64,000 nt of DNA, from positions 2,656,001-2,720,000 of the forward strand of contig CP084166.1 of assembly GCA_021513695.1 (NCBI GenBank), given 5' to 3'. Shown piece by piece: positions 7,925 through 53,028 of the stretch. Position 1 is the stretch's first letter, and each line of letters begins with the position of its first letter. The translations under genes and the position numbers were made by a program. Under the pieces are notes generated by a model. That model had not been told where the DNA came from. It saw only the letters and a list, made by a program, of their open reading frames with translations, and searched no databases. The DNA comes from Candidatus Heimdallarchaeum aukensis (GTDB lineage Archaea; Asgardarchaeota; Heimdallarchaeia; Heimdallarchaeales; Heimdallarchaeaceae).

Positions 7925-9310
<1,386 letters not shown>

Positions 9311-9394: not shown

Positions 9395-10801
9395 TTAGAT
9401 AAAATCTCCCGTTTCTATTTTCTGTGGGAGGTAGAAGTTTGTAATAAATTGTGGGTCACGTGCATTTAATGCTTGTATTTCTGCTTTATAACCTGTATTT
9501 ATTAGGATTTCAAGTTGTTCTTGCCATTTTGGTTTTCTCTTTACGAACTCTTCTTCAAGCATTAACTTTGATCTTCTTATGTCTTTTTGAGTCATTTTGA
9601 TTAGTGCTTCTCTAGGAATATCAAATCCACTTTCAGGTTTTAGATCACTTGGGAGCAAACCTAACCATTTAATATTTGGCACTGCAAGATGGGTTGATTC
9701 GAAACTAAGAGCTTTACTTCCAACGCTATATACTCTCATGATTTCGAATCCGTAAGGGTCAGCATCCATAATGGCAAGAATAGGTAATTGTAAGTCATCA
9801 TTTATTTTCTTTAGAAACTGTCTTGTTGCCATGTCAGGTTGACCTTTAGCTGTAACTAAAATGCTTGGTACATAATCGTAAAAATGGTCTTCTGCTAACC
9901 TGTTAAAAATAGCATCTTTTTCAATAACTAAACAAAATTCAGCATCACTTTCTAAATCTTCGATGTCATCTATATTTGGTGAAATAGCTTTTCCTGAACC
10001 GATAGCTCTACAATCTATAAGATCACCCTTTTCCTTGAATTGTAACTTTCCTACAACAATACCTTTAGACGATGCACTAACATTTAGTGAAGTCCTCGTA
10101 GCTTGTATCATTGCTCCTAAATCTTCAATAAGAGAGTCTGATACTGCTTGTTTCTTAAACGCATTCACATTCATGTAGAAAATATCTCTTTTTGTACTGT
10201 GAATATCACGTGATAGTATGTCATGAAGAAGTCTCATTAATATTGACATTTGTTCAATCGTGCTTACAGAGGATAAACTCCTAAATTGGCGTTCTATCAT
10301 TTGTCTACCAATAAGTACTAATTCTTGTTCTTCATCAAAACCAATATTTCTCTTTCCTCTTGAAGGAATTTTAAAACTAGCTTCATCAGGTTTGTTAAGT
10401 GCTTCATTCAAAAATAATAATGCTGCTTCAACAATTTTATTTTTAGCTTTTTCCGAAGACATTGTTTCTACATTAGTTACACCATAAGGTAACTCATAAT
10501 CCTGCAATAAAGTAAGTTCGTTTCTAAGTTTCCTTATTTTATCAACTGGAACTTTTCTTTTTATTTCAATTCTCATTAATTCTTTCTTAAGAGGATAATT
10601 ACCTAAGGTTTTACCTTTCTCTAGAGGATACCACTTCTTTCCGCTTCTCAAAAAGAGTACAAAAGATCCTTTTTTAAGTTCAAATTCTTCTTGTAATATT
10701 TGAAATAATTCATTTATCTGAATACTGTTATCAAAACTCATTTTTACTTCAGTTGAAGGCAATATTGTTGCATTTTTTACTAAAAAATTATAGTTTACCA
10801 T
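9395..10801 (-). CDS. top6A: DNA topoisomerase VI subunit A (Spo11 homologue) with an N-terminal extension of roughly 80-90 aa.
   Basis: CAP/winged-helix region with the catalytic tyrosine motif TKRDIFYMN. Toprim domain: LVIEKDAIFNRL...VTAKGQPDMATRQFLKKI...ILAIMDADPYGFEIM. The gene lies 10 nt downstream of the top6B stop (canonical top6B-top6A operon). Confidence 0.85.
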   Translation of the reverse strand: MVNYNFLVKNATILPSTEVKMSFDNSIQINELFQILQEEFELKKGSFVLFLRSGKKWYPLEKGKTLGNYPLKKELMRIEIKRKVPVDKIRKLRNELTLLQDYELPYGVTNVETMSSEKAKNKIVEAALLFLNEALNKPDEASFKIPSRGKRNIGFDEEQELVLIGRQMIERQFRSLSSVSTIEQMSILMRLLHDILSRDIHSTKRDIFYMNVNAFKKQAVSDSLIEDLGAMIQATRTSLNVSASSKGIVVGKLQFKEKGDLIDCRAIGSGKAISPNIDDIEDLESDAEFCLVIEKDAIFNRLAEDHFYDYVPSILVTAKGQPDMATRQFLKKINDDLQLPILAIMDADPYGFEIMRVYSVGSKALSFESTHLAVPNIKWLGLLPSDLKPESGFDIPREALIKMTQKDIRRSKLMLEEEFVKRKPKWQEQLEILINTGYKAEIQALNARDPQFITNFYLPQKIETGDFI

Positions 10802-10810
10802 TTTTCCACC

Positions 10811-13800
10811 TCATTTTGTACTCCTTTTTTTGGTTTCAATTTTTGTATCAGCTGAAATTTCATCTAAAGTTGTTTGTTTTGTTCGCTTTGAAGTTGTTGT
10901 TTTCTTTGTTGTTGTACTTGGTCTCTTTGTTTTAGTAGTCGTTGTTTTCTTTGTTGTTGTACTTGGTCTCTTTGTTTTAGTAGTCGTTGTTTTCTTTGTT
11001 GTTGTACTTGGTCTCTTTGCTTTGGTAGTCGTTGTTTTTACAAAAGGAATTGTCTGTTTGATCTTCTTTATATCATTATAAGTCATCTCTAGCTTTCCTT
11101 CAAGCTGAGATGTCGGATAAGCAATAAATTCTCCAATTGTATTAATTCCAAGTGAGTTCAACTTATTTCGTATTTGCTGTTTAACATCTAATTTTTCTAT
11201 TGGCTCTTCTATTAACTTTAGTAATTTTTGAACATTTTTGTTTTTGAAAATATCTTTTCTCTTCGTACGATTATCAGCAAATATCAACTCTTCAAACGAA
11301 GATATCCCTATTTCTTTTAATTTTGATATAATCTCACTGCTCATAAATGGTGTACTTTTCACTATTTGCGTTTTACCCTTCTTTGCAATTTTTAGAGATT
11401 GAGGAGTTAAAGTTGCAAAATAGTTTCTTAACTGCCTTTCTGTTATATTAGTAATTTCAGTCAGTTCGTTAATTTTTGTATTAAAAACATCCCAGAGAGA
11501 ATACTTCTGTTTATGGTATAATTTAAAGATACTGTTTGGTTTATCCTGCATTAGTGCATAGAATGAGTAAATTGGGTATGAAAGAAGTTCTTTTAATGTG
11601 GATATCTGTCTGATTGATAACTCTGTTTGTTCTTTAATTCTCTTATCAGAAACTGATAAATGTATAATGTGGGAATACCCACCGTTTTCCAATATGGATT
11701 TTTCAGTATCTGAAAATAGACCTAAATCTTTAATCCTATAGCTATTTAGTTCTAATTGCTCTTTCACTTTAGTCATGTTAAGAGAGTTAAGAAGTTCAGT
11801 AAATTCTGCACGTTGTTTTTCTGTAAATTTAATCTGTAAATCATCTATATTTTGTAGGAAGAAAAGATCATAAACTTGTTCATAACCTCTTTTTGCTAGT
11901 TGAAAAAGTATATTCTTTTGACGTATAAATAATGCTAATGATGCTCTAAAACAAGAAAGAACATCTTTTACTTTCATGGATAAGTCGCTGATATTTTTCT
12001 CTTCAAACAAAGCAATTAGTTCACCTAATGAATTTATATCATTTTCATTTAGCTCGTTAATTATTTCTTTATCGTTTACAAAATCTATAAGTTTAGAATT
12101 GCTTTGAGATGCTAATGAATCTAGATCATGGAACGGAATTTGAGATAAAAGGTTTTTAAGGACAGTTATGTTTGAAGATTTATTTAATAATAGTAAATCA
12201 TAAACTGTTTTTGTATTACTTTTTAGTAGAAGCCTAAATGTTTCCTTACTCTCAAAGACAAGTGGAAGAGAGTAAATTTTTTGTTCAATTCTTAAACGGA
12301 GTTTTTCCGTGATCTTCCATCTCTTTGAAGTTTTTGATTTTGATACAATATTAAACACGTAAGCCTCTTCTATAGAGAAAATGTGACCTTGACTTAAAAC
12401 ATCTAATTCAGTTTTATCCAAAATTGTTTCAGGAATGGGGGTTAACTTAGATGCTAGAGTACGTAATGTTTCTAGTGATAGATTTCGAATCTGACGTATT
12501 AGTCTATTATCGTCGATTATCTGACTTAACTGGTATCTAGGTTTTAAAATTAAATCTCCTATTGTTAAGTTGCCATATTGTTTGAATTTCTCTTTATTTT
12601 CAAAACTTTCATTGACTAGCAAAATAACATGCCTATTTAGAAATTGTAAGTATTCATTAAAGTGTAAAGTTATGGTCTCTGGGAAAGAACTTGTAATTTT
12701 GTCAAATTGCTTTTTATCATATTTCTCCAAGAGAAGTAAGGATTCAAGGGTATATTGGACTTTTAGTTCATCTTTTTCAGGAAGATTCAACTTTTCTTCG
12801 AATTTGGTTGGTTTTGAGAAAATAAATGAGTAAATATCAAGTAGTCTCTTGGATACTTGAGAATTTACTTTTAGAGAATCATGATGTATATTGAAGAAAA
12901 CTAATTGTTGAAAACTTAAGTCTGGGAGTTTTTCGTCAAAATATCGCGAAGAGAGTTTTTGTAAAAGTCCAATTTTTGTTCTTAATGAAGGTGAAAGGTT
13001 AGAAACAACATCAGTGTTTTCAAAGAGATCAAGATAATTCTTAATACCATTTTCTCTCAATTCAGCAATATCAAAATCTTGTAGAACAATGTTTGTTTTT
13101 AGAGCAGGGGGGTTGCTTATTCTAGAAATAGTAATCTTACTAAGAAAAGTGTCAACTTCACTAATGTTTGTGCTTATAATTTTTGCAAGAGCTGGCTTAG
13201 ATAACAAAAGCATTTCTTGTAGAGTACTTACTTTGGATAAAAGTTTTAACCAATTTTCGAGAGGAAGTTGTGGGAAAGAAATCAGATAAATAGATTTGTT
13301 TAATATCTTTTGAACATTATTTCGTAATTTACTTCTCAATTTACAGTGTTTTTTTGATAAATCATAAACCAAATCGTCAATAACTGTATAATATTTCAGT
13401 AATTTTTTCTTTGTTTCACTATCAAACAGCATAATATTGGAAAGTTGAACTCTTTTATCTCTCAATTTTTTAATTGTTTTAACATTCAAAGTTGAGAGAA
13501 CATGATTAACTTTCTCAAGTTGTTTTTCTGATAAGAATGAAGAATATGAAATAGGTTTAATTAGTAAATCCTTTAGTGTTTCGATTTTATGTTCATTCAG
13601 TTTTTCTACTTCTTTTTCAGTGAAATCTGTTATTATAGAGACAGAACTGTTAAGGAGGTTTAGAATCTCTAATCCTGTTTTAGTAAGAAACTCTTTGTTC
13701 ATGTATAAAACAGAAATAAAATCAATGATATTTGAGATCTCTGGAATTTCAATGTTTTTGCTGAATAAGTTTTTTGAATTAATAGTACCAAGAAAATCTT

Positions 13801-16800
13801 TTGTCTTTAACGTAAGAGATAATGTTTTCTTTTTATCTTTAATCAGATTACTAATTATGGTGTTATAATCACCAAAGCTGACTAGTTGATCGTTTTTAAC
13901 AAGATCTCTGATGGTGAAAAGATTGTTGTCAAAGTATTTTGTTTCAATCTCTTCAAATTTTAAGGAGTTAATAGAGCTTAAGAATAGGATTGATGTATCT
14001 AAAATTTGTTTTATTTTTGTTCTTATTTTTTCTATCTTTTTAATATCATAAAGCCAGTTGTATATTGAATTCTCTTCTAAATCTGAAAAACTATAGAATC
14101 CATAAGATAACAAAGTAGATTTTTCTTTTTCACTAAGAAATGGTAAATCTACAAAATGATTTGGCTTATCTTTTTCAATTGTTTTCTTGATTTTATCAAT
14201 CTTTATTGATGAGCGTAGTTTCAATATTTGATCAAGTTTAATCCTTGATTCTTTTGCGACTGTTTTATACGGAATAAGCAGTAGATCTGCGATAGTGTAT
14301 GTTCCACCTTTTTTAAGGTTAGTTTCTATTTTCTCTTCTAGTCCTAAATATCGAATATTGGCTAGTAAATATGGGCTAATTTCTGCAAATATGCTCTTAT
14401 CTTTTAGATTAACATCTCCAAGTAATTCTTGATAAGATAAGTACCCAAGTTTCATTGCTTTTTCTTCATATGAACCTAAAGGAGGAATAAAACTTTCAAG
14501 ATGTAGATTTTTTAACATTGATAGACTTGATAAAATTTCATCAACCATTGCATCATCTAGATTTTGGATAGAGGAAATAACATCTATAATGTAAACTAAC
14601 TTCTTGTTATAACAAGATTTTATTGTATCTAATGTCAATATAGGTAGATTGTTTATGTTTCTACTTAATTTCATTCTAATATCTTTAATTTCTTCAATGT
14701 ATGAATCTGGTAGGCTTAAGAAAAACTCTTCAGGGAAGTAATATAGATATTCAATTGAGAAAACTCCCAAACTGTATAGCTTTTGAACTAATGACTTATT
14801 TAACTTTAAGTTTGCAATATCAAGAGTAGAGAATTGAAGGGAAGATAGATTCCTAATGAAAAGAGAATTGTTCTCTTTTATGGCTTTATCCAATTTTGGG
14901 AGAAGGGTTTCCCACAGGTGAATAGGAATATGAAGGTAGTCATAATATGTTTTTTTATTTTTTAAAGATTCATTAATATTTTTTGTTGAAATCCCGAGTA
15001 TACGCTCAATTGTCTTTATTGGTGTAAAGAGAATAGGTATATTCACTATCAACTTTTCTTTTTCATCTTTGTTTATTTCTAATTGATCTACATCATGATA
15101 AAATAGTTGAATTAAAGAGTAAATCTCATTTTCATTAAGATATTCGATTGTAGAAACCTCGGGTTTTTTGATTGTTTTTGGACTAGTACCTTCTTTAGCT
15201 TCACGTTTTTTAATAAGTGGAAGTTTACCCTCTTTTGTTAGTTCTTTTTCAGTTAAGGATGGTAAAAGGTTTAAGTCGATTCCATAGAGTTTAAGTTCAG
15301 AAACAATATTTCTTTTACTAATCTGTAATTTAATAGTGTTTATCTCTTTATACTCTATTTCAAATAATTTACCCAAAGAAACTGATGGAATAGATAAAAA
15401 TTCAAGTATAGTGTTAATCTTATTTTCAAAGAGAATAGAGTTTTGTTGCAATGAAAGTGAACTTAAGAAGGAAATTGGAGTTGTTCCAAACAATGAGAGA
15501 GTCTTTTTTATTGATGATAAATTCTTATCTTCTGAACTGTAATCCTGTAAACAAAGAAGTTGATCTAAATACTCAATATTAATCTTTTTTAGATATAGCT
15601 TCTGTTGTTTGGACAAAAATTTTACATCACGTAACTTAATTGCCCATTTAGGTATTTGAAAATCAGATAAAGAACTTACTACATATTCTGCTAGTTCTAT
15701 GTCAATATTGTCTGGAGGAAGAAGTAATAAATCAAGAATAAGTTTTTTATCTTCCTTCATCAAATTTCTCAAAAACTCAAGCTGATCTATTTGAGAAAAT
15801 TTATCTAACCAAATAATTGGATATTTTACCATACTTGTAAGAGAATTAGAATTACTAAAGAGAATTTGAGAACTTATGACAAATGGTTGAGGAAGCAGAT
15901 CTAGTAGATTAATAACATCGGGAGAGGTCTTAATGTCTAGTTTATCACTTTTATTTGATAGAATGTCCAGATGATCTTTGGGAATTAAGTTAACTAATTT
16001 TTCTTTAGAAAATTCTTTTACAAAACGGATAATCTCACTTCTAGCATTTGATGGAATAGTTCTCTTTTCTTCAGAGCTAAGAGTAAGAAGTTCAATAATA
16101 TTTTTAACTCCATTTTTCCATAAATCAAGTTTGACGTCTAAACTCATGTCTGAGATAGAAAAAATATTTAGACATAAACCATAGATTAGTTCTTCAAGTT
16201 TAGCAATACTACTCGCTTTTTCTATTTTTTCACTTTCTGAGAATATAAGCAAGTATTCTGGTACCAACCCAAAGATATCTTCAAATGATGCTTTTGAAAG
16301 GTTGAATTTAAAGTCTGTGAGTGTACTTATTAATTCTTTATCTTCTTCAAGAATAGGTATGCCTGAACTAAGGCTTATGTTTCCCTTTCTTTTATCTTTT
16401 AACTCTTCAGGAATGGAATTGAATATCTTCTTAAGATCTTTTTCTCTAACTATAAAGAGGTCAATAACTCGTAGAATGCGGTTTTTTGCAAGACTACGTT
16501 TAATAAAGCGTGAAAGGTTTGAAATTCTGAAGACTGAAGAGTTACAAAGAGAGAGAAAATTATCAATATTTTCCTTAAATTCTTCAGAAAATGATTTTAT
16601 TTGATAACAAAGACCATAAAGATCTTGAACTGTGTCCTTATTCAGTTTTTGTAAGCTAAGAAGATTTCTCTTTGACAATAACGCAAGAGATTCAAGTTTT
16701 ATTCCTTTTTCTTCAACTTCATTTAGTATTTTTTTAACTGAAATATTTTCTTTTATTTTGATAATTTCAGTTTCAGGTATGTCTAAAATTAATGATATCG

Positions 16801-19800
16801 TAGTGATGTCTTCTGTTAAGAAGGTGAGTATATCCCCGACGCCAGAATAAACAAGTTTTAACATTTGTTCTAACTCTAAATCCAAGAAGAATACAGATGA
16901 GAGATACAACTTTGCTTCTTTAAATACATTCATGTTCACTAGATATGGGTATGATTTTCTGATTTCAGACATTCTAGAAATGAAGTCTTGAATTGAATAA
17001 ATCCCTAATTCATGTAATTTTTCTACATATTCACTTGTTATTGATGGACAATTTTCTAGAGGAATTGCAAAACGAAGTCTTTTCTCTTTTAATTCATCTA
17101 AAGATAACAAGTCAAATATATGAAATTCATCATAAATAGGATTGTTTAGAATTTGTGATAATTGTCCTTTTTCAAAAAGAGACAAATCGATTACTGAGTG
17201 AATATCCTGTAATTCTAGTTTCTTTATTTCTTCAAAAGACAAGAAACTAAGAAAAGTTATTGAACCTGATAATATTTCTTTAAATTCTCTATATTTCTCT
17301 TGCTTTAAGATACTGGATGCACCCATTCTTACTCCAGCATAGTACAAAGTTTCTATGTCTGATATTCCTATATCTCGTAATTTAGAAATTTCAGTTTCCG
17401 TGATGAGAGAAGAAGGCATAATAGGGTGAGATCTTGCTTTGTGTAATTCAACAATTTCACTATAAGATAGATTTTCCTTTATTTCATTAATCCTTTTTTG
17501 TGTTTCATTAGATATTTCAGAAAGTTTTTTGGTTGGTGTTGAATAAAAGTCTATTAATGTTGTAATTGAAGATCTGCTAAGAGGAAGAGCAAGATTAACG
17601 TCCAAGTTTAGTGAAGAAATAGGAATAGACAAATCACCTATAAGTTTATCTAAACTATTTTCTTCACCTAGTTTGTTTTTAATTTCCAAGAGAGGAGAGT
17701 TCTCCTCGAATTCAAGTTCAAATAAGCTCCCTAAAGTAATTATAAAGTATTTATTCCTCATATCTTCACTTAAAAGATTGAGAAAAGGTGTAATTCCAAG
17801 TGGTAATTCAAAAACTGAACGAATAAGTGTAATGTTACATTTTTCAAAAGCTAATTGTCTTTCAAATTCGCTGAGGGTTTTTATCAAATCTGTGCTGGAA
17901 ATAACATCAAGTAATGTTAACTCTTCAATATCTTCCAGAATAGTAGAAAAGAAGTCTTTATTGTAAGCAGTTGCAGAAAGAAAATCAAAGTAGTGATAAG
18001 CTCTCAAGTCAATTAATTTAGAAGAATAGTCTGAAACAGTTCTAAATAGCGTTCTATCCGTTAAATCGCTATCTAATATGAATATTAAATGGTAAAGGTG
18101 GGTTATTTGGTTTTGATTAAAAATAGTCAAAGAATAATCTGAAATCTCCTGAAAAATCCGTAAAGGAAGTGATAATATTTTCTTTAATGTGAAAACTTTT
18201 CTCCAGATTGATGAGTTTCTGTCGATGAAAACTTCATCGGGACAGTAGAAAAGTTCTTGAATTGATTGAAATCCTTCATAACTGTAAATTGTTTCTCTAC
18301 TTAGCGTTCTTTGTTCATTTTTGTCAAAAAGTCTAGTTTCATATGCATAGATTGCTCGCGCCTCATATTCTTCTCTTATTCTCTGTGATGTTAAAATGTC
18401 AATTATTTCCTTTGTTTCTTTTGTTGTAATGTTTAGGATATTACTGAGTTTAACAGATGAAGTAGAAACGAAATCAACTATAGTTAATATACCCGCTTTT
18501 CTCAATTCTTCAGTTTGTGAAAAAGAGATATTTGGTAAGAAATAAACAGGGAGACTGAAAAAGTAAAAAATTTCACCAAGATCTAGACTTCTCTTAATAT
18601 TATCAAAACGTTCGTCGGGAATCCCTGTTCTTTCCATTAGAACTTTAGATGACGTAAGTAGAAAACCTAACAATGTATTTATTTTGTTTTTCTTTAAGAG
18701 CTTAATTATATCTGGATCTAACATGTCTGACAAGTGCTTAAATCGTAAATTTAGCACATTTTTTAAATTCTGAACTATCTCCCATGGAATTGTTCTTATT
18801 GCCCATTTTTCTTGCTGAGTAGAAAAGTATAGGTCCTCAATGGTAAAGATGTTGTTAGTTTCTAAAATTTCTACTATCGATGGTCTAAAGATATCAAGTT
18901 CAGAAATATCTGTTCCAGTTTCACTAATCCTGATATTTTTCTTGTATTTTTTAGCTTCTTCTAAATCAATTTTTAAAATAGAAGCGATTGTTTCATCACT
19001 AACAAGGAAAAAGTCAATGATTCTTCTGATTCCAGTTTTTCTTAGAGCATTCAGCTGTTCATGGGATAAGCTTGTTATTTCAATTTCTTCAATTTCTTCC
19101 TCTTGTTTTGTTTCTTCATTTAATATCTTCTTCTTTGTGGTTTTTTCCCAAGTAACTAGCGTCAGGGGAGAACGCAATAGTTTCTTGAATTTTTCAATTA
19201 CACCCCATTTTATTATGGGAGCACCAAAAGTGTAAGGGTGTGTTAAATAAAATAGCTGGTCTATAGAATTGTAACCAATAACAAGTAAAGAACGGATTTC
19301 TTCAGGTGAAAAACGTTCTGAATTTTCAAAATCAAAGGAGATTATTGATTCATACTTACCACTAGATACTTTCTCGTAGAATGGTTGTCCATCTCTATTT
19401 ACATCAAAATTGTTTATTAACTCATCAAAATTCTTCTTTGAAAAATTAAGTATCGTGCTTAATTCATCAAAACTGTAATTTAAAAATTGGTGCAGAGAGT
19501 AAATCTTTTTTGAAGCTAATACTTCATAATCTTTAAGTTTCAAGCTTTTTATACGAGTGATTGGTAATTGCAAAAACTGATAGAAATCAATTATTTCGTG
19601 AGATAACAAAACTTTTTCTGCAAACTCATCAGTATCTTTAAGATTTTTACTATTTATATTGTCGTAGAGTTCAAGTAAAATTTTTTTGTCTTTATTTTTT
19701 GAAATTTCTGTCTCAATAAATACAGGTGTAAGTTGAAGGAAATCTCTTATTGTATTTACATCCTTGGTTTTGAGCTTAAGAAGAGCATCATTCAATGACT

Positions 19801-21732
19801 TTGCTTTAGATTTTGTTGGGGCTAACTTTGCTAAAAATATTAGATCTTCATTCATGAATTCTCTAAAGTTATTCATCTTAGTTAAAAGATCTGAAATCGA
19901 CGGAAGTTCTTCTTCAATATAAAAGTAAAACAACTCTTGTATTGTTGTTTGTTGTTCATTGAATTGCTTAACCAATCTTGGAAAGTGTTTTTTTATTATT
20001 TTTAAATTTCCTTTGTATCTTTCTTTATTTTTTGTAATCTTGTTAGCAGATATACTTTGTTTTAGACGTATAATTTCTTGTTCGTTAAGGTTTAATACCA
20101 AAGAGAGTTCTTTATTACTCCATATTAGAAACCTGCCTATACAGTTTACTCCAATTTCATTCAAAACGTTAATTTTCTCGTTTAGTTCAGGAAAAGCAAA
20201 AATCAAGGGAGTTCGTAATAGTAAGTAATCTGAAACATATTGTTTCTTTGTTTGTTCATCTTTAAATTCAAAATTCTCTGGTTGAGAATATAGAATGTCC
20301 TCTACTGTATAAATTTCATATTTACTTGCTTTGTTCTTCAAAGATAGAAAGTTAGGAATGGGCGTACCTATCTTTTTCTTTATTCTTGCAATCTCGCTTT
20401 TTAATAAACCCATTTCGCGTAATTTTTTCGATGGTGTAATCAAGAATGATGTGGAAGTAAATATCTTGTTTTCTAGCAATTTTTCTTCAGCTTTTTCACT
20501 AATCACTTTTAAGTGTGATAGGTCAAGGTCTTTATTTACTTCATTAAGATGAGAAAGAATGCGAAACTTTGATTCTTCTAATAGACTATCAACAAAAACA
20601 CTTAGTTCTTTTTTCATTAACGTTCTTAATTTAGCGTTTGCATATTGTGCTAAGGTTTCTATATTCGCTGATTTAAGACTGTCTAGTATGTTTTTTCTTA
20701 TATTGTCATCTATGGTTGATATTAGTCCTAGTTTGTTAAGAGGGATAGATCTCTCGCTGTTAGCTAGAATAGTGAAAAATCTAGTATAAATAGAACGCTC
20801 TAATTCTTTGATTTCTAAAAGGTCTTTAGTTGGCGTTTTAAGAAAATTATCTATTGTCTCTATCTTTCTTCTATGAAAAGCATTTTTAGAATATCCATCT
20901 ATCCAATCAGGTTTCATTTTTGTAATGTTGACCTTTAGAAAATCAGGAAACTTTTCTGAAACATGTGAAAATACCTTTTTAACGTAATCAATCAACATTT
21001 CTGTTAAATCATTATCATATTTAAACGAAAAAGGCTCATTGAACTTATAAATAAAATCCTCTAACCCCTTAAACTTATTTGAAAAGTTGGGATAACTTGT
21101 TTTTATATAATTGAAATCTGGATACAGAAATTCTTCTTTTAACTCTGAATAATCAGACATAGTTTCTAAATTAAATTTAAATTCTTCGATAAAGATCGAC
21201 AACTCTACTGTTTCTTGGCCATCTTGAGATTTTGTAACTTCGTTAATTAGCTTAAATTTGTTATCTTCTATTAGACGTTCTACTAAACCTTCAACTAAAC
21301 GCAATTGTGTAGCTTCTGTAGCTAAATAATGATAGCTATTTTGAATCCATCTTTGATATAATGCTTCATTGAAACTACTACTAGTTCCTTGACGTGCAAA
21401 CCTCTTATCTATCATTTTATTTGTTAATGCTTTTAGTGGGAGTTCAGGGCTCAACTTAGACCTGTCTAGTTCATAAATTGTTCTTTGTTTTATTCTTGAA
21501 ACTTCTTTTTTTGAAAGATTCAAAATAGGAGCTAGTTCTGAAACAGGTATGGAAAGAAACTTTCCAATTGTTAAAATATCACTTTTAGCACAACTTTTCT
21601 TGTATTTATCAGGGCACCACACATTAAGTTCAAAAATGGGTGTCCCTAAAGGAACAAAATTTCTAATTTTCTTTTTTGCTCCGTGAGCTAGAGCTGCTGC
21701 AACTTTATATTTTTCTTTATTTATGTTTGTAT
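10811..21732 (-). other. C-terminal extension of the giant protein. A tandem array of degenerate helix-hairpin-helix (HhH)-like DNA-binding motifs (I can see more than 20 by eye). It resembles RNAP alpha-CTD / Topo V style (HhH)2 units.
   Basis: The pattern L..[LIV]G[IVLF].[ST][IV].[DE][LF]......EL..I.GI....A..I recurs. Examples: LRKAGILTIVDFVSTSSVKLSNILNITTKETKEIIDIL; KLHELGIYSIQDFISRMSEIRK; LRDIGISDIETLYYAGVRMGASSIL; LYSLGVFSIEYLYYFPEEFF; LRENGIKNYLDLFENTDVVSNLSPSLRTKIG; LKEIGISSFEELIFAD; LNSLGINTIGEFIAYPTSQLEG. There are no long exact DNA repeats, so the array is ancient and diverged. Confidence 0.55.
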
Positions 21733-23365
21733 AAACTATTTTTTCATTCTCTAAAATTCTTGCGAGGTTATCAATTACAACAGGTGCTGATCGTACAAAA
21801 CGGGATAATCGTGCATGTTCTCTTTTCCTTCTTTTTGCTCTACTAAGGAATGTTTTAAGTCTTCTACCAAGTTGTTGTAAAGCTAACCTAATCTCTTCTT
21901 CAATTTCTGGGACGGTTGAGATATACTCCTTACTCGTTTCAGGAAAAGGTATTTTTGTACTTACAATTGATACTGCAATCGCGAGAGGATCTGATTGTCT
22001 TGTAAGACCGTATTCACTCCAATTAAGCGAAGAAACTACTTTTGTAATAACGTCATTTCCCGCACCAAAAATTAAAGGAATTCTATTTGCATATCGATAA
22101 ATTATTTTGTTGTCGACTGACGTGCTTCCTTTTTGTTGAGCATATTTTGATACTCCCCCCCCATAACCTATTGCTGCTTCAACGATAAAAGGATGACCAG
22201 AATAAGCTTTTGGAGGACGAGAAATCGCTTCTACAAACTCTGGTTCAAGTTCTTTTTCTAAACCTTTTCTTAATCTTGCTGCTCCTAAAGGAGAAAGAGC
22301 ATCACCTTGTGGAGCATCAAATCTAAAGATTCTATCTCTTTTTCTTTTTATTTCTTTAGCCTCTTGGTAGGCTTTGATAAATCCTTCATGAACTATTCTT
22401 CTAATTTCTTTAGAAGTAAGGTCGCTAGGCTTTTTATTAGGGTCAATTTCTAAAATCTGAAAGAACTCTTCAGCTACTTCTTTTCTTACTCCCATAAAAT
22501 CTTTTGACAGAAAATCAACTAGATTTTCTGCAGAAGTAGCAGCAATTTTTGCTTTAAACTGAGTGATATCACATCCAAATGGGTGTAACTGAATTACTTT
22601 AGGAGGGTCGGGCATATCATCTACTACTTTTTGGAAAACTAATGTTTCACTTGTTCCTTCTTCATCTCCTGGAAGAACTACAGTAAAACTTGCATAGGGA
22701 GTAATTATAGCTAATTGTTTAAAATACTCCTTAATACTGTTCTTTGCTAGATTCCAAGCTCCAGTAAAAGTTATACTTATCTCAGTACCGCTAGTGTGCA
22801 AATATCCTGGGTCATCTGGATTATATTCGTGTTGTTCCATAATAACAGGTTCATTTTTTTCCAAGTTGATCATTAAATGAACTTCTGTAGTCATTTCTTC
22901 CATGAAGTATCTGCTCTTTATCCTTGCAGGAAGATCTACAGATGACATAGAATGTAGTAGACACATCTTGGCTCCTAAACCAAATCTGCCTCTAGTTTGA
23001 ATTACTCCATATTTTGTTCCTGTTAATACTCTACCAAAAAGATTTGGAATCTCATGACCAGGAACACCTACACCGTTATCTCTACATGTTAACTGAAGAA
23101 AATCAAGATGTTTTTCTAACTGTTTATATCTGGTAATATCTAATAATTCATTAATTTCAGAACTTGATAACTTCCTTAATTCAATATATATTTCAGGGTT
23201 CACACCTAGTTTTTCTGCTGCATCTAAGCCATTCTCGACCAATTCTCTAACAGAGGTAAAAACAGCTCGCATCGAGTTGCCAAAACCTGCAATGGCCTTA
23301 TTTTCATTGAAGAAAGCAGCTGCACTCATTTTTCGTGTTTTATTTTCTTCAGCCACAAAATTCAC
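10811..23365 (-). CDS. top6B: Giant 4184-aa protein. An N-terminal complete topoisomerase VI subunit B module (GHKL ATPase, H2TH, transducer) is fused to a huge C-terminal extension of about 3640 aa. The extension is built of HhH-like repeats and ends in a basic K/T-rich tail.
   Basis: A single uninterrupted 12.5 kb ORF in a roughly 30% GC genome. N-terminal motifs: Bergerat N-box ELVENGLDAAE, G1 box CRDNGVGVP, G2 box TRGRFGLGAK, transducer motif IYRYANRIPLIFGAGNDV, and a long C-terminal helix of the transducer. All plus-strand ORFs inside are short antisense shadows. Confidence 0.85.
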   Translation of the reverse strand: MNFVAEENKTRKMSAAAFFNENKAIAGFGNSMRAVFTSVRELVENGLDAAEKLGVNPEIYIELRKLSSSEINELLDITRYKQLEKHLDFLQLTCRDNGVGVPGHEIPNLFGRVLTGTKYGVIQTRGRFGLGAKMCLLHSMSSVDLPARIKSRYFMEEMTTEVHLMINLEKNEPVIMEQHEYNPDDPGYLHTSGTEISITFTGAWNLAKNSIKEYFKQLAIITPYASFTVVLPGDEEGTSETLVFQKVVDDMPDPPKVIQLHPFGCDITQFKAKIAATSAENLVDFLSKDFMGVRKEVAEEFFQILEIDPNKKPSDLTSKEIRRIVHEGFIKAYQEAKEIKRKRDRIFRFDAPQGDALSPLGAARLRKGLEKELEPEFVEAISRPPKAYSGHPFIVEAAIGYGGGVSKYAQQKGSTSVDNKIIYRYANRIPLIFGAGNDVITKVVSSLNWSEYGLTRQSDPLAIAVSIVSTKIPFPETSKEYISTVPEIEEEIRLALQQLGRRLKTFLSRAKRRKREHARLSRFVRSAPVVIDNLARILENEKIVYTNINKEKYKVAAALAHGAKKKIRNFVPLGTPIFELNVWCPDKYKKSCAKSDILTIGKFLSIPVSELAPILNLSKKEVSRIKQRTIYELDRSKLSPELPLKALTNKMIDKRFARQGTSSSFNEALYQRWIQNSYHYLATEATQLRLVEGLVERLIEDNKFKLINEVTKSQDGQETVELSIFIEEFKFNLETMSDYSELKEEFLYPDFNYIKTSYPNFSNKFKGLEDFIYKFNEPFSFKYDNDLTEMLIDYVKKVFSHVSEKFPDFLKVNITKMKPDWIDGYSKNAFHRRKIETIDNFLKTPTKDLLEIKELERSIYTRFFTILANSERSIPLNKLGLISTIDDNIRKNILDSLKSANIETLAQYANAKLRTLMKKELSVFVDSLLEESKFRILSHLNEVNKDLDLSHLKVISEKAEEKLLENKIFTSTSFLITPSKKLREMGLLKSEIARIKKKIGTPIPNFLSLKNKASKYEIYTVEDILYSQPENFEFKDEQTKKQYVSDYLLLRTPLIFAFPELNEKINVLNEIGVNCIGRFLIWSNKELSLVLNLNEQEIIRLKQSISANKITKNKERYKGNLKIIKKHFPRLVKQFNEQQTTIQELFYFYIEEELPSISDLLTKMNNFREFMNEDLIFLAKLAPTKSKAKSLNDALLKLKTKDVNTIRDFLQLTPVFIETEISKNKDKKILLELYDNINSKNLKDTDEFAEKVLLSHEIIDFYQFLQLPITRIKSLKLKDYEVLASKKIYSLHQFLNYSFDELSTILNFSKKNFDELINNFDVNRDGQPFYEKVSSGKYESIISFDFENSERFSPEEIRSLLVIGYNSIDQLFYLTHPYTFGAPIIKWGVIEKFKKLLRSPLTLVTWEKTTKKKILNEETKQEEEIEEIEITSLSHEQLNALRKTGIRRIIDFFLVSDETIASILKIDLEEAKKYKKNIRISETGTDISELDIFRPSIVEILETNNIFTIEDLYFSTQQEKWAIRTIPWEIVQNLKNVLNLRFKHLSDMLDPDIIKLLKKNKINTLLGFLLTSSKVLMERTGIPDERFDNIKRSLDLGEIFYFFSLPVYFLPNISFSQTEELRKAGILTIVDFVSTSSVKLSNILNITTKETKEIIDILTSQRIREEYEARAIYAYETRLFDKNEQRTLSRETIYSYEGFQSIQELFYCPDEVFIDRNSSIWRKVFTLKKILSLPLRIFQEISDYSLTIFNQNQITHLYHLIFILDSDLTDRTLFRTVSDYSSKLIDLRAYHYFDFLSATAYNKDFFSTILEDIEELTLLDVISSTDLIKTLSEFERQLAFEKCNITLIRSVFELPLGITPFLNLLSEDMRNKYFIITLGSLFELEFEENSPLLEIKNKLGEENSLDKLIGDLSIPISSLNLDVNLALPLSRSSITTLIDFYSTPTKKLSEISNETQKRINEIKENLSYSEIVELHKARSHPIMPSSLITETEISKLRDIGISDIETLYYAGVRMGASSILKQEKYREFKEILSGSITFLSFLSFEEIKKLELQDIHSVIDLSLFEKGQLSQILNNPIYDEFHIFDLLSLDELKEKRLRFAIPLENCPSITSEYVEKLHELGIYSIQDFISRMSEIRKSYPYLVNMNVFKEAKLYLSSVFFLDLELEQMLKLVYSGVGDILTFLTEDITTISLILDIPETEIIKIKENISVKKILNEVEEKGIKLESLALLSKRNLLSLQKLNKDTVQDLYGLCYQIKSFSEEFKENIDNFLSLCNSSVFRISNLSRFIKRSLAKNRILRVIDLFIVREKDLKKIFNSIPEELKDKRKGNISLSSGIPILEEDKELISTLTDFKFNLSKASFEDIFGLVPEYLLIFSESEKIEKASSIAKLEELIYGLCLNIFSISDMSLDVKLDLWKNGVKNIIELLTLSSEEKRTIPSNARSEIIRFVKEFSKEKLVNLIPKDHLDILSNKSDKLDIKTSPDVINLLDLLPQPFVISSQILFSNSNSLTSMVKYPIIWLDKFSQIDQLEFLRNLMKEDKKLILDLLLLPPDNIDIELAEYVVSSLSDFQIPKWAIKLRDVKFLSKQQKLYLKKINIEYLDQLLCLQDYSSEDKNLSSIKKTLSLFGTTPISFLSSLSLQQNSILFENKINTILEFLSIPSVSLGKLFEIEYKEINTIKLQISKRNIVSELKLYGIDLNLLPSLTEKELTKEGKLPLIKKREAKEGTSPKTIKKPEVSTIEYLNENEIYSLIQLFYHDVDQLEINKDEKEKLIVNIPILFTPIKTIERILGISTKNINESLKNKKTYYDYLHIPIHLWETLLPKLDKAIKENNSLFIRNLSSLQFSTLDIANLKLNKSLVQKLYSLGVFSIEYLYYFPEEFFLSLPDSYIEEIKDIRMKLSRNINNLPILTLDTIKSCYNKKLVYIIDVISSIQNLDDAMVDEILSSLSMLKNLHLESFIPPLGSYEEKAMKLGYLSYQELLGDVNLKDKSIFAEISPYLLANIRYLGLEEKIETNLKKGGTYTIADLLLIPYKTVAKESRIKLDQILKLRSSIKIDKIKKTIEKDKPNHFVDLPFLSEKEKSTLLSYGFYSFSDLEENSIYNWLYDIKKIEKIRTKIKQILDTSILFLSSINSLKFEEIETKYFDNNLFTIRDLVKNDQLVSFGDYNTIISNLIKDKKKTLSLTLKTKDFLGTINSKNLFSKNIEIPEISNIIDFISVLYMNKEFLTKTGLEILNLLNSSVSIITDFTEKEVEKLNEHKIETLKDLLIKPISYSSFLSEKQLEKVNHVLSTLNVKTIKKLRDKRVQLSNIMLFDSETKKKLLKYYTVIDDLVYDLSKKHCKLRSKLRNNVQKILNKSIYLISFPQLPLENWLKLLSKVSTLQEMLLLSKPALAKIISTNISEVDTFLSKITISRISNPPALKTNIVLQDFDIAELRENGIKNYLDLFENTDVVSNLSPSLRTKIGLLQKLSSRYFDEKLPDLSFQQLVFFNIHHDSLKVNSQVSKRLLDIYSFIFSKPTKFEEKLNLPEKDELKVQYTLESLLLLEKYDKKQFDKITSSFPETITLHFNEYLQFLNRHVILLVNESFENKEKFKQYGNLTIGDLILKPRYQLSQIIDDNRLIRQIRNLSLETLRTLASKLTPIPETILDKTELDVLSQGHIFSIEEAYVFNIVSKSKTSKRWKITEKLRLRIEQKIYSLPLVFESKETFRLLLKSNTKTVYDLLLLNKSSNITVLKNLLSQIPFHDLDSLASQSNSKLIDFVNDKEIINELNENDINSLGELIALFEEKNISDLSMKVKDVLSCFRASLALFIRQKNILFQLAKRGYEQVYDLFFLQNIDDLQIKFTEKQRAEFTELLNSLNMTKVKEQLELNSYRIKDLGLFSDTEKSILENGGYSHIIHLSVSDKRIKEQTELSIRQISTLKELLSYPIYSFYALMQDKPNSIFKLYHKQKYSLWDVFNTKINELTEITNITERQLRNYFATLTPQSLKIAKKGKTQIVKSTPFMSSEIISKLKEIGISSFEELIFADNRTKRKDIFKNKNVQKLLKLIEEPIEKLDVKQQIRNKLNSLGINTIGEFIAYPTSQLEGKLEMTYNDIKKIKQTIPFVKTTTTKAKRPSTTTKKTTTTKTKRPSTTTKKTTTTKTKRPSTTTKKTTTSKRTKQTTLDEISADTKIETKKRSTK
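10896..11030 (-). repeat. Near-perfect 3 x 45-nt direct tandem DNA repeat. It encodes a KTKRPSTTTKKTTTT x3 basic Lys/Thr-rich C-terminal tail of the giant protein.
   Basis: Unit gttgttttctttgttgttgtacttggtctctttgttttagtagtc occurs at 10896-10940 and 10941-10985, and at 10986-11030 with 2 substitutions. A partial degenerate copy lies upstream. The unit is in-frame (15 aa). Confidence 0.9.
21733..23365 (-). other. TopoVI-B homologous region of the giant protein (aa 1 to about 545). Comprises the GHKL/Bergerat ATPase, H2TH domain and transducer.
   Basis: Motif positions counted in the translation: N-box at aa 41-50, G1 at about aa 95-102, G2 at about aa 124-133, transducer RYANRIPL at aa 424-431, and a C-terminal helix extending to about aa 545. 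Confidence 0.7.
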
Positions 23366-23503: not shown

Positions 23504-26440
23504 TTATTTTTTCTTGCGGAACAATTGTTGTTTTACTGGTTCTGGATTAATTGTTAGAGAAGAAACAATTATACCAAGTGTTAGAATAAATAATGCTGCA
23601 AAAGCCCCTCCAGTTCTGTAAGAGTCAGCTCTTCCGATTATTGAGAGGAACTCATCTTCTATTTGTTTAGCAAGGTTATCTGTGGAATATAGGATATCTT
23701 CGAGCCAGAATAAGTTTGCCATGTCTGCAGTAAGTTTTGGATAAGTTTGATGCCATGTTCTGTATTTATATTGAATGTCTTCAGTATCTTCTACAACATC
23801 TTCATCAAGGAATGGATAGTACTCAATATATTGTCCTGCATAAGTGTTGTATTGTACTCTATCTCTTCGTTCAAGAATTGTACCAGTTGTTGGGTCAGTG
23901 AAGATCTGTTGGAAGTGGAATTCATCACGTATAGAACCTGGGAAGGTGTGAGTGATATAAATATCGTCATTCTTCCAATCGGTACCATGAATTTGGTTCC
24001 ATCTTCCTACATGGACGAAACTCTCGTTTAGGTAGTCTGCATACTCTTGCCAGTATAAATCGTATTGATCGACTTGTAGGTAAGGTTGTTGTGTATCTGC
24101 ATAATAAATGTAAGCATCTCTACCATACATGATTGTTTTATCTCTGGCTGAATCAAATATAAATGGACGATAGAAGTACTCAACCCATCTTTGTGTAAAT
24201 CCTCTTTCTGTGTTTGGAGGTAGGACATCTAATCCATAAGTTTCACTAAATGGTTCAAACTGTGTAGTCTTCATTGGCCAATTGTTTAATTGAACAAAAG
24301 AAGCTTTATCCCAAATTTCAACGAATGTTCTTAATTCGTCTCTATGTAAGACATCACTGAATGAACCTGAAGAATAGGTTATGTGTATTAATCCTTTTGA
24401 ACCATCTGCAAGGTAAATGTTTTCACCAGAAGCATAAATATCGTATGCTTCTCCGTCACTATCATAAGTTGCTAAACTTGTTAAGGAATTGACGTTAGAT
24501 GCATCAACTACAATCAAACCATTTTCTCCAGCAGTGAGATATAGCAGATCGTTGTTTTGGTATAGGTTGAAGAATCCACCAGAAACACCAAAGTCATATG
24601 TTCCTATTTGAGTTAAGGTGTTTCCACTAATGGAATAAACAACAAGTCCTAAGGTGTCATCAAGAACATACAGAGTTGTTCCATCTAATAATAACTGAGT
24701 TGCTCCAGTAAGAGAAACGTTTGCTAATGATTCTAATGTAACTGCATCAAAAACTTCTATTCCTCGTCCCTGTTCAACAGCATAGGCTTTTGTTCCATCA
24801 GTTACAACAGCTGTAACAGGAGATTCAGTCTCTTTAAGTGTGTTTAGTGATATGTCTCCTCCATTAGTAGTTGCTTTAGCTAATCCATATTGACCCATAG
24901 CGATGAGCATAAAAGTCTTTGTTGGATTATATTCAAGGTCTAAAGCGTTTATATCTCCTCCATTGGTCCAAACTGTAATTTGGTCAATTTCTGTAAGATC
25001 AGACATATCTAATGAAACTATTCCTTTTTCTCCTGCTGCTACGTATGCAAAATCGCCATATAAACTAGTTTCAAAAGCGATGTCTCTGAAGAAATAACCT
25101 TGTAATCTGTATCCACCAATACCCAAAAACAAGGGGCTGGATGTGTTTACTATTCTAAATCCTCTATTTCCTTCAATAACATAAGCGAATTCGTCATTCA
25201 TTTCAACCTTATAACTTTGAGATTCTTCGAAGGTTGGTATGTTGGCTATTCCAATGATTTCATCAACTTTTGTTATATTATCTCTTCCTGTTTTAACAGC
25301 GTATAATAGGTCTGTTGAAGGATCAACTGAGTCAACTGCAAATGACTGATTAACTAAGAAAGGATATTTTTTTCCGCCGAGGAGTGGATCTTCAACTCCT
25401 GTAACCCATTCTAAAGCTGTTCTTTCACATATGTATGATATCTTGTTTTCATATAACCAGTTTAAAGCAGGTGTACCAGTAAGATATCTGATGTATGCAG
25501 CAAAAGATTGAGCTTGTTCTAGTTCCTCTGGTGTATCGATGTCATAAATTTCTGCTAACTTTTGAGTTACATTAATTGTGAGGATTGAGGGGTCATAGCT
25601 TAACCCTTGGACTAAATCAAGGAAGTACTTCATAGAACCGGCTTCTCCAGTGAATAGAGAATAATCATGACCATCTGCAGTAATTGCATTAAAGAGAATT
25701 TTGTAGGCTGTAGCGCTATCAAAGTTAATATCAGTGTGGTCAGGACGTGAGTTGATCCACATGTGAGGGCTATATTTGATACTATAAATTAGGTCGTTAG
25801 TTTGAGCATATGCCTTATTTAGCACAAGTTTAGCAATCTCACTGTTGTTGTATCCTAAACCTTCTAACTCGCTTCGAATCATAAATCCTGCAACATAAGC
25901 TTGTAAACCATATTCTGAACCATTACCAAAATTTTTCACATAATATGGCCAGAGGTAGTTATAATTGATGATTTTCTCATTACCTGTTAATGTTGAAAGT
26001 GTTTTATTTAAAGTGTATTGTTTCCGTTCGGTGTAAACAACATAATCATTTTCTTCACTATAATCAATTACAAATTTCTTCACTTCTAAGTCAAATACTA
26101 GTTTTCCTGGAATACCTATGTAAGTAATTGGAGTGTTCTTGTACAAGTATGCGTTTCTATCACTTATGTTGTAAAATTCTATATACGTATGAGCGTAATA
26201 ATTACTATCATCAGAGTATTTAGCAACATACATCCAATCAGAGTAATTGTCGCTTCCTCCTTCATAAGGATCAAGATCGTCTTCTGTAATCATACCATAC
26301 TCATTTAGCTTCTCTTCTATTTGATTATTGATTTTAATAGTTTGAATTGGTAACATTACGCCAACTGCGATAGCTGATCCAGAAGTTAAAATTAAAATAA
26401 ATATTCCTAACATTACACGGAATTTTTTCTGCATAGTCAT
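23504..26440 (-). CDS. Large membrane-anchored surface protein with LVIVD/YVTN-type beta-propeller repeats.
   Basis: N-terminal signal/TM (MTMQKKFRVMLGIFILILTSGSAIA) and a C-terminal TM followed by a basic tail (FAALFILTLGIIVSSL...RKKK). Repeated motifs: YAYVAAGEKGIVSLD, LLYLTAGENGLIVVD, NIYLADGSKGLIHI, TLYVLDDTLGLVVY. Confidence 0.6.
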   Translation of the reverse strand: MTMQKKFRVMLGIFILILTSGSAIAVGVMLPIQTIKINNQIEEKLNEYGMITEDDLDPYEGGSDNYSDWMYVAKYSDDSNYYAHTYIEFYNISDRNAYLYKNTPITYIGIPGKLVFDLEVKKFVIDYSEENDYVVYTERKQYTLNKTLSTLTGNEKIINYNYLWPYYVKNFGNGSEYGLQAYVAGFMIRSELEGLGYNNSEIAKLVLNKAYAQTNDLIYSIKYSPHMWINSRPDHTDINFDSATAYKILFNAITADGHDYSLFTGEAGSMKYFLDLVQGLSYDPSILTINVTQKLAEIYDIDTPEELEQAQSFAAYIRYLTGTPALNWLYENKISYICERTALEWVTGVEDPLLGGKKYPFLVNQSFAVDSVDPSTDLLYAVKTGRDNITKVDEIIGIANIPTFEESQSYKVEMNDEFAYVIEGNRGFRIVNTSSPLFLGIGGYRLQGYFFRDIAFETSLYGDFAYVAAGEKGIVSLDMSDLTEIDQITVWTNGGDINALDLEYNPTKTFMLIAMGQYGLAKATTNGGDISLNTLKETESPVTAVVTDGTKAYAVEQGRGIEVFDAVTLESLANVSLTGATQLLLDGTTLYVLDDTLGLVVYSISGNTLTQIGTYDFGVSGGFFNLYQNNDLLYLTAGENGLIVVDASNVNSLTSLATYDSDGEAYDIYASGENIYLADGSKGLIHITYSSGSFSDVLHRDELRTFVEIWDKASFVQLNNWPMKTTQFEPFSETYGLDVLPPNTERGFTQRWVEYFYRPFIFDSARDKTIMYGRDAYIYYADTQQPYLQVDQYDLYWQEYADYLNESFVHVGRWNQIHGTDWKNDDIYITHTFPGSIRDEFHFQQIFTDPTTGTILERRDRVQYNTYAGQYIEYYPFLDEDVVEDTEDIQYKYRTWHQTYPKLTADMANLFWLEDILYSTDNLAKQIEDEFLSIIGRADSYRTGGAFAALFILTLGIIVSSLTINPEPVKQQLFRKKK

Positions 26441-52844: not shown

Positions 52845-53028
52845 ATAAACTTGGTTGATTGAAATTATTTAAACAATTATTTAAATACTATGTTAAAATT
52901 ATTTCACTTTTTTATTAACTAGTAATGCATAAAAGTAAAAAATAGCATAAAAGGCAAAAAAAATGACCTGACACCAAATATGAAGCAAAGAACATAATAT
53001 TTTGTTTTTTAAAAAAAAGAAAAAAGAG

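Follow-up and report, generated by a model that had tools for sequence, protein, structure and literature searches.

A giant topoisomerase VI subunit B of Candidatus Heimdallarchaeum aukensis with a long C-terminal array of predicted helix-hairpin-helix units

Introduction

Among type II topoisomerases, topoisomerase VI (Topo VI), with its two gates, counts as the simplest, and it is the ancestor of the meiotic Spo11 complex. The 64,000-nucleotide (nt) window analysed here, positions 2,656,001 to 2,720,000 of contig CP084166.1 of Candidatus (Ca.) Heimdallarchaeum aukensis, contains on its reverse strand an open reading frame (ORF) of 4184 codons that begins as subunit B of this enzyme (Top6B) and continues far beyond the usual end of such a protein. 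The locus raises the question whether this gene is intact, whether its product is the Topo VI B subunit of the cell, and what the extension is. The reading proposed here, with a probability of roughly 0.55, is that this protein, a Top6B module fused to an array of about 58 units of tandem helix-hairpin-helix type, (HhH)2, and a tail, would be the working Topo VI B subunit of this archaeon, and that the array would serve as an architectural arm and not as a uniform DNA clamp. Heimdallarchaeia are the archaeal group most often placed beside eukaryotes, and the lineage matters, as their DNA machinery is used to reconstruct the eukaryotic ancestor.

A single intact reading frame

The gene, its partner top6A and the sequence between them are arranged in the window as follows.
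10811..23365, reverse strand: giant top6B ORF, one stop-free frame, 4184 codons from the first GTG
21716..23347, reverse strand: canonical Top6B module, amino acids (aa) 7-550 (GHKL ATPase, H2TH and transducer), located by Pfam, NCBIfam and alignment to 2zbk_B
10802..10810, reverse strand: spacer ggtggaaaa, Shine-Dalgarno-like, 9 nt between the top6B stop and the top6A start
9395..10801, reverse strand: top6A, 468 aa, with TP6A_N and Toprim domains (Pfam)

No stop codon occurs inside the 4184-codon translation according to both the ORF listing and the translation itself, and the other frames across the same 12.5 kb contain only two ORFs of at least 100 aa. With G+C content of about 30%, stop codons are expected at a frequency of about 0.08 per codon, and the chance of 4184 open codons, calculated from composition, is about 1e-150; the single 12.5 kb frame is thus not a product of chance, as the preliminary description of this DNA had held. 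The second GTG, at 23356, is the likelier start, because a GGAG sits 8 nt before it, and the probable product has 4181 aa and about 485 kDa. This product is 100% identical over its full length to UJG40514.1 (UniRef100_A0A9Y1FL76), "DNA topoisomerase VI subunit B" of Ca. H. aukensis, which is encoded on a record of 3,081,793 bp and begins three codons after the first GTG of the 4184-codon frame. The circular Ca. H. aukensis genome comes from Nanopore and Illumina reads combined (PMC8813620).

Some metagenome-assembled genomes (MAGs) show the gene as two or three ORFs with overlapping frame changes, which speaks for an artefact: a frameshift, a chimeric assembly or a collapsed repeat would have joined a normal top6B to a downstream gene. 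Against this stands first the identity with the protein of the circular Nanopore and Illumina genome. In the complete circular genome of the sister species Ca. H. endolithica PR6 (CP084167.1) a frame of 4304 aa lies in the same synteny; the two proteins share 89.6% aa identity with a single 1-aa indel before residue 4110, and their 120-aa difference in length is wholly in the low-complexity tail. Loci were found in 26 GTDB species representatives, and all 16 with a contig spanning the gene have an independent stop-free frame of 4174-4346 aa, the remaining ones being interrupted by contig ends. Among syntenic relatives are a MAG copy with 98% identity and an ortholog of 4341 aa with 48%. A comparison of the window with the 98% copy counts 50 synonymous and 42 non-synonymous differences in the extension (ratio of non-synonymous to synonymous rates, dN/dS, 0.215, with 0.14 for the Top6B module), and indels occur only in the tail; judged by these substitutions, the extension is under purifying selection. 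Tandem Repeats Finder (TRF) detected no DNA-level tandem repeat in the array, the only one in the gene being that of the tail, and self-BLASTP of the protein gave no off-diagonal match at E<1e-3. The self-BLASTP result rules out recent duplication or collapsed DNA repeats, and so, except in the tail, does that of TRF. With neither DNA repeats nor an internal self-match, the array gives no cause for concern about collapse or expansion during assembly. On this sequence evidence the artefact, assembly collapse included, can be considered effectively refuted.

A canonical Top6B module coupled to top6A

The N-terminal module was recognized at the level of protein equivalogs. Residues 7-550 score 470.8 bits with NF003218 (cut-off 274) and 400.6 with TIGR01052 (cut-off 380.7), both NCBIfam equivalogs, and Pfam Topo-VIb_trans matches aa 352-518 with E 3.5e-57. 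The alignment of aa 8-540 with residues 5-488 of Saccharolobus shibatae Top6B (2zbk_B, 530 aa) has E 3e-88. The segments VRELVENGLDA, DNGVGVP and TRGRFGLGAK match S. shibatae VRELIENSLDA, DNGIGIP and TRGMYGLGVK, which are the N, G1 and G2 boxes; RYANRIPL aligns to RYANKIPL, and STKIPFPETSKE to STKIPYKSAGKE, the final K of which we take to be the switch lysine. All four motifs named in the preliminary description (ELVENGLDA, DNGVG, GRFGLGAK and RYANRIPL) were therefore found and have S. shibatae counterparts, and its placing of an intact, genuine Top6B module in the N-terminal 13% or so of the protein was borne out by the profile searches. A helix matching the C-terminal part of S. shibatae Top6B in the alignment forms the end of the module.

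Compared with its S. shibatae counterpart, the GHKL domain has an insertion of about 17 aa within SSSEINELLDITRYKQLEKHLDF (aa 67-90; about 23096-23167, reverse strand). The insertion lies after the N box and before the G1 box and is kept among Heimdallarchaeaceae orthologs.

The top6A product keeps the catalytic Tyr (RDIFY), the Toprim E (VIEKDA) and the DxD motif (DADPYG), as aligned to 2zbk_A. Its N-terminal 110 residues or so have no counterpart in S. shibatae Top6A, and probably represent the Asgard/eukaryote-type N-terminal helix region of PMC9665070. Judged by position, top6B is co-transcribed with this intact top6A. The coupling of both genes had been proposed with a 10-nt spacer; the coupling is supported, but the distance from the TGA stop to the top6A ATG is 9 nt.

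The best explanation of these data is that the protein would be the working Topo VI B subunit of Ca. H. aukensis, and its core would perform ordinary ATP-driven strand passage. With two copies of each subunit (A2B2), the enzyme would have a mass of about 1.08 MDa (2 x 484.7 + 2 x 53.6 kDa) and two arms.

An array of degenerate (HhH)2 units

Three regions of the extension are referred to below.
11027..21640, reverse strand: array in which about 58 degenerate (HhH)2 units, each about 61 aa long, follow in tandem; they are of the type of the RNA polymerase alpha subunit C-terminal domain (alpha-CTD) and the RAD51 N-terminal domain (NTD), aa 576-4113 (unit profile, Pfam, PDB profile)
16721..19093, reverse strand: acidic central segment with the highest conservation, aa 1425-2215, 13 units in the model (AlphaFold2)
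11966..14353, reverse strand: distal segment of low conservation, aa 3005-3800, for which the model shows about 13 units of this fold (AlphaFold2)

A single-unit phmmer seed recovered only three units, as the units are too diverged, and it was replaced by a hidden Markov model (HMM) seeded with 16 hand-picked anchors and iterated over 77 giant proteins. The consensus of this unit HMM is LPPEEIKKLKKNGITTIIDFLLTPSEELAKILGLSEKEIEEIKK. In the window protein it detects 25 units at independent E-value (iE) <0.01 and 37 at iE<1, while shuffled controls give 0-1. Projection from 14 orthologs yields 36 supported unit positions between aa 595 and 4072, with spacings of about 55-67 aa or multiples of these, and the number of about 58 units would correspond to about 61 aa per unit across aa 576-4113.

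The fold was assigned by profiles and by structure prediction. Pfam reports RAD51D_N (summed E 8.8e-17), RNA_pol_A_CTD (E 2.3e-6, in three stretches) and TfoX_C on the extension, the individual units being mostly under the per-domain thresholds, and precomputed matches of homologs add HHH_5 and PF26169 (HHH_XRCC3_RpoA). When a profile of 23 units was run against the sequences of the PDB, bacterial RNA polymerase alpha-CTD came out on top (E 6.6e-4 to 6e-3, at best 52 of 61 positions), followed weakly by RAD51/DMC1 N-terminal domains. AlphaFold2, run with 12 orthologs as alignment, gave the following models.
aa 1425-2215: predicted local distance difference test (pLDDT) 82.3, predicted template modelling score (pTM) 0.70, 13 repeats of a 4-5-helix unit
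aa 3005-3800 (poorly conserved): pLDDT 86.7, pTM 0.71, about 13 units

The closest solved structures, each with its score, deviation and aligned length, are listed here.
aa 1425-2215: RAD51C NTD 8gj9_B, 7.8 (1.5 A, 60 aa)
aa 1425-2215: NusA acidic repeat 2 (AR2) 2jzb_B, 6.7 (2.2 A, 59 aa)
aa 1425-2215: alpha-CTD 5vi8_T, 6.3 (2.3 A, 52 aa)
aa 3005-3800: alpha-CTD 1z3e_B, 8.7 (1.6 A, 60 aa)
aa 3005-3800: RAD51C NTD 8gj9_B, 7.0 (2.3 A, 59 aa)

The five-helix unit superposes on solved members of the PF03118, PF21794 and PF26169 subtype, in agreement with the profile match. Some of the (HhH)2/SAM modules among the structural neighbours bind DNA, and others bind only protein, such as NusA AR2, which was solved together with alpha-CTD. 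Modelling thus gave a consistent fold for two separate 13-unit segments of the extension. The array is probably a semi-rigid solenoid and not beads on a string, because the pTM is high over 13 units, as expected from fixed packing between units.

Distribution and conservation

All 76 matches in a search with the full protein have the Top6B transducer and a length above 2300 aa. Their sizes group by lineage.
about 4160-4340 aa: Heimdallarchaeaceae
about 3470-3690 aa: Kariarchaeaceae
about 2310-2460 aa and 2940-3140 aa: Hodarchaeales and relatives

When 1.84 billion representative proteins were scanned exhaustively by HMMER, with aa 1425-2215 as query, only 34 matches resulted, and those checked were such proteins or their fragments. 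By these searches the array is spread across Heimdallarchaeia, in sizes of 2300-4340 aa; it was not detected outside, and no other family detectably shares it. Orthologous Top6B genes do carry the extension, a point the preliminary description had put forward for checking, and they were detected in Heimdallarchaeia only.

Between the size classes the extension is collinear to about aa 1150 (with Hodarchaeales) or about aa 1740-1960 (with the others), and its distal part is lineage-specific. Within Heimdallarchaeaceae the whole array is collinear in 14 orthologs with 41-48% identity, and their alignment needs 4395 columns for proteins of about 4180 aa. In this set identity is 76-84% in the module, 50-60% in aa 1300-2200 and 20-37% in the distal part, and one block of 791 aa has the same length in 14 of 14. 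A motif search found NAFHRR, WIQN..H and other motifs specific to Heimdallarchaeaceae and not universal.

In a few Asgard lineages extra divergent copies of Top6A and Top6B were reported (PMC12680538), and the giant protein could accordingly be a specialised paralogue with a side function, while a separate Top6B of normal size does the housekeeping. Heimdall Top6B proteins of normal size (611 and 622 aa) are indeed among the matches, but each has HhH ORFs behind it in overlapping frames (617 + 1033 aa and 2996 aa, respectively), with top6A next, and they were rejected as paralogues: they are split copies of the fusion. These split loci (L001, 1-9620, and L002, 4978-16846, from Hodarchaeales and related MAGs) keep the order module, array, top6A, and at one of them homology runs directly across the frame change. 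The splits may be sequencing frameshifts, pseudogenes or genuine. At every locus seen, the giant gene is coupled to top6A. Its module is the most conserved part of the protein and passes the equivalog cut-offs. Among the 120 best module matches there is no further Heimdall-labelled Top6B, the nearest modules from outside, which are of ordinary size, being those of Njordarchaeia (about 575 aa) and Korarchaeota (814 aa; 39-40% identity), then those of other archaea and plants. On the loci and matches covered, a paralogue is very improbable, in accordance with the earlier suggestion that this is the Topo VI B of the cell.

Charge of the array and its possible contacts

Two further features form the C-terminus of the protein.
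10814..11035, reverse strand: basic Lys/Thr-rich low-complexity tail, aa 4111-4184, net charge +19, isoelectric point (pI) 11.3, with three copies of KRPSTTTKKTTTTKT
10856..10879, reverse strand: terminal peptide KQTTLDEI, aa 4163-4170, recognized from the inspected C-termini of 77 homologs

The 12 (HhH)2 domains of topoisomerase V (Topo V) are thought to tether DNA and to raise processivity or salt tolerance. By analogy, the whole array could bind duplex DNA non-specifically, tether Topo VI and raise its processivity or salt tolerance in the same way. The architecture is the same, with tandem (HhH)2 domains placed behind a topoisomerase module; the proximal third, the distal third and the tail are basic, and among 1653 units one K/R near the unit end is kept in 78%. 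Yet across its 3550 aa the array carries a net charge of no more than +4, with a pI of 7.8, and it is divided into zones of +15 (aa 561-1310), -40 (aa 1311-2560) and +29 (aa 2561-4110), so that the most conserved 1000 aa or so are acidic, and basic character is confined to the units towards both ends of the array and to the 74-aa tail. This zoning (proximal basic, centre acidic, distal basic) is kept among orthologs, and arrays of Kariarchaeaceae and Hodarchaeales are acidic nearly throughout, with a basic C-terminal end. The hairpins are degenerate: in the same 1653 units, Gly is present in hairpin 1 of 51% and in hairpin 2 of 35%. The position aligned to the DNA-contacting Arg of alpha-CTD is K/R in only 25% and is not conserved. 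A uniform clamp similar to that of Topo V is unlikely, because the centre of the array is both acidic and its most conserved part. The "DNA-binding appendage" named in the preliminary description is thus only partly supported: the fold is of the HhH type, but uniform DNA binding is not supported.

At the opposite end, the array could be a pure protein scaffold or polymer, in which SAM-like/(HhH)2 units self-associate or dock chromatin, replisome or cytoskeletal partners, and Topo VI would be a structural part of a chromosome-organising assembly. The conserved acidic centre agrees with this, and so do unit positions that are individually orthologous and invariant in length, as for specific docking sites. 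However, no partner was identified, the neighbouring genes are unrelated housekeeping genes, and the basic tail and end zones suggest some contact with nucleic acid. A scaffold of this kind is rather unlikely, too.

The tail is the sole length-variable part of the gene. It is coded by a 45-nt unit that is repeated in tandem 3.3 times, with a 97% match, at 10892-11038 on the reverse strand; the corresponding stretch of locus L005 is at about 18100-18646. In Ca. H. endolithica the tail is about 120 aa longer, and in the 98%-identical MAG copy it is 17 aa longer in the aligned part, which ends at the contig end. In orthologs the terminal peptide has the form [KR]Q[TIM]TL[LFMV]D and follows the disordered basic tail, while proteins of the other size classes, some of the Hodarchaeales class among them, terminate in QKSLNAFQ, VDKFF, VDQYF or LDSYM. 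The PIP box, by which proteins interact with PCNA, has the form Qxx[LIM]xx[FY][FY] and is located close to a terminus, behind a disordered linker. The window terminus QTTLDEIS has the Q and the L of this box without the aromatic pair, and orthologs have QTTL[LF]D[VM]x; the peptide may, as a lead, be regarded as a degenerate PCNA-interacting box. If this is true, it would tie Topo VI to the sliding clamp.

Proposed role of the array

On the reading preferred here, an architectural arm, the array would exit the core about 35 residues past the last segment aligned to S. shibatae Top6B. This end of the core is taken to contact Top6A, and the array would begin in the neighbourhood of the DNA gate. 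Its proximal units, which are mildly basic, may extend the DNA-binding surface beside the gate, and the conserved acidic centre may act as a spacer and as a docking platform for basic partners or other proteins. Mildly basic distal units together with the very basic tail would hold DNA or chromatin at a distance, and the terminal peptide would recruit a partner. The net effect would be to anchor or localise Topo VI on the chromosome and to bias its choice of DNA crossings. Such a bias would be relevant because Topo VI is described as preferentially a decatenase, and because in gyrase-containing archaea, including Heimdallarchaeia, it was proposed to be specialised via lineage-specific C-terminal additions of Top6B (PMC9348778).

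Several points weigh against this reading. We infer every functional step of it from the sequence and the models, and the evidence for the rigidity and length of the arm is the pTM. Charge is a crude proxy, because HhH motifs touch phosphate via backbone amides, and parts of the neutral array could still bind DNA. Degenerate hairpin glycines fit degenerate DNA binding as well as none, and the terminal peptide of this species lacks the canonical aromatic pair of a PIP box.

A more speculative and quite doubtful possibility goes further: two solenoid arms, possibly about 100 nm long, would make Topo VI a chromosome scaffold, an axis or a replisome-tethered decatenase, with the tail and the PIP-like peptide for recruitment and the acidic array docking histones or other basic chromatin proteins. 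If the enzyme did act as a scaffold, it would foreshadow the scaffold role of eukaryotic topoisomerase II.

A selected, invariant array of about 58 domains and a five-fold gain in mass point to a large extra layer of function, for which localisation, substrate selection and chromosome architecture are candidates. The array could serve as a test case for distinguishing DNA binding, protein binding and a rigid spacer.

Comparison with known systems

With canonical Top6B proteins (S. shibatae 2ZBK and Methanosarcina mazei 2Q2E) the window protein shares the GHKL-H2TH-transducer arrangement, the catalytic motifs, the adjacent top6A and equivalog-level scores. Canonical Top6B has about 60 kDa and Top6A about 45 kDa, and the A2B2 enzyme about 210 kDa (PMC7614492), whereas the subunit here has 485 kDa. 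Known C-terminal additions of Top6B are a short helix or, in gyrase-containing Euryarchaeota, an Ig-like domain of about 100 aa (PMC9348778), compared with an HhH array of about 3550 aa in the window protein.

The nearest parallel in architecture is Topo V of Methanopyrus kandleri, where 12 (HhH)2 domains follow the catalytic domain (PMC7614492) and, as in the window protein, the tandem domains are C-terminal to the topoisomerase domain. However, Topo V is an ATP-independent type IC enzyme, and the window enzyme is of type IIB, an unrelated catalytic class. The window array has about five times as many units, is of the alpha-CTD/RAD51-NTD subtype and is neutral to acidic. It is also by far the longest tandem (HhH)2 array met in this analysis. 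No homology of the array to Topo V was found in sequence or in multi-domain structure, and judged from this the resemblance is most simply convergent.

Domains of the alpha-CTD type, the NTDs of RAD51, RadA and RAD51C, and the acidic repeats of NusA occur as one or two per protein, whereas about 58 form one continuous structure here. The window units are too diverged for any unit-to-unit BLAST match. The C-terminal domains of GyrA and ParC, and the plant Topo VI partners RHL1 and BIN4 (described in PMC7614492 and PMC9665070), are likewise non-catalytic additions thought to tune substrate choice or localisation. They have other folds (a beta-pinwheel in GyrA/ParC, while RHL1 and BIN4 are unrelated plant proteins) and another scale, and the window array is present in cis, on the same chain as the ATPase module; it showed no homology to the GyrA/ParC C-terminal domains, RHL1 or BIN4.

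Earlier descriptions

No description of the array was found in full-text literature and supplements, a search that left most papers of subscription journals outside, so that an earlier description is possible; this agrees with the preliminary description, whose author knew of no Top6B with such an extension. The sequence is already deposited and named, and its architecture is apparently unreported. Lineage-specific C-terminal extensions of Top6B in gyrase-encoding Asgard archaea were described as a globular domain (PMC9348778), and Asgard TopoVIB was scored "CTD +" without detail (PMC9665070). An extended-data figure of Asgard proteins >3000 aa with CDD domains (PMC8813620) may include the window protein, although the word topoisomerase is absent from the text and 25 supplements of that paper. 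Phylogenetic and structural surveys of Top6B trim or ignore the region, and the database name hides the architecture.

Neighbouring genes

The neighbouring genes, which are unrelated housekeeping genes, give no hint to the function of the array, and no Rfam family reached its gathering score in the 64-kb window. Directly upstream of top6B are a 978-aa LVIVD-repeat protein (23504-26440, reverse strand) and a 421-aa ORF without Pfam match (26673-27938, reverse strand), and both keep this position in the related loci L003, L004 and L005. In the Hodarchaeales locus L001, gyrA abuts top6B directly upstream. In L004, the locus of the 4341-aa ortholog, an Alba gene (22514-22813) lies just downstream of top6A on the opposite strand; the counterpart of this position in the window is occupied by a glutamate dehydrogenase gene (7949-9310).

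A 379-aa ORF (30959-32098, forward strand) has a sub-threshold match to Tubulin/FtsZ GTPase (Pfam E 3.2e-7) and is preceded by a 436-aa ORF without Pfam match (29638-30948, forward strand). This pair is syntenic in L004, the 48%-identical relative, where a tubulin match is on record. The G+C content is 0.386 at 52001-54000, compared with about 0.30 elsewhere in the window.

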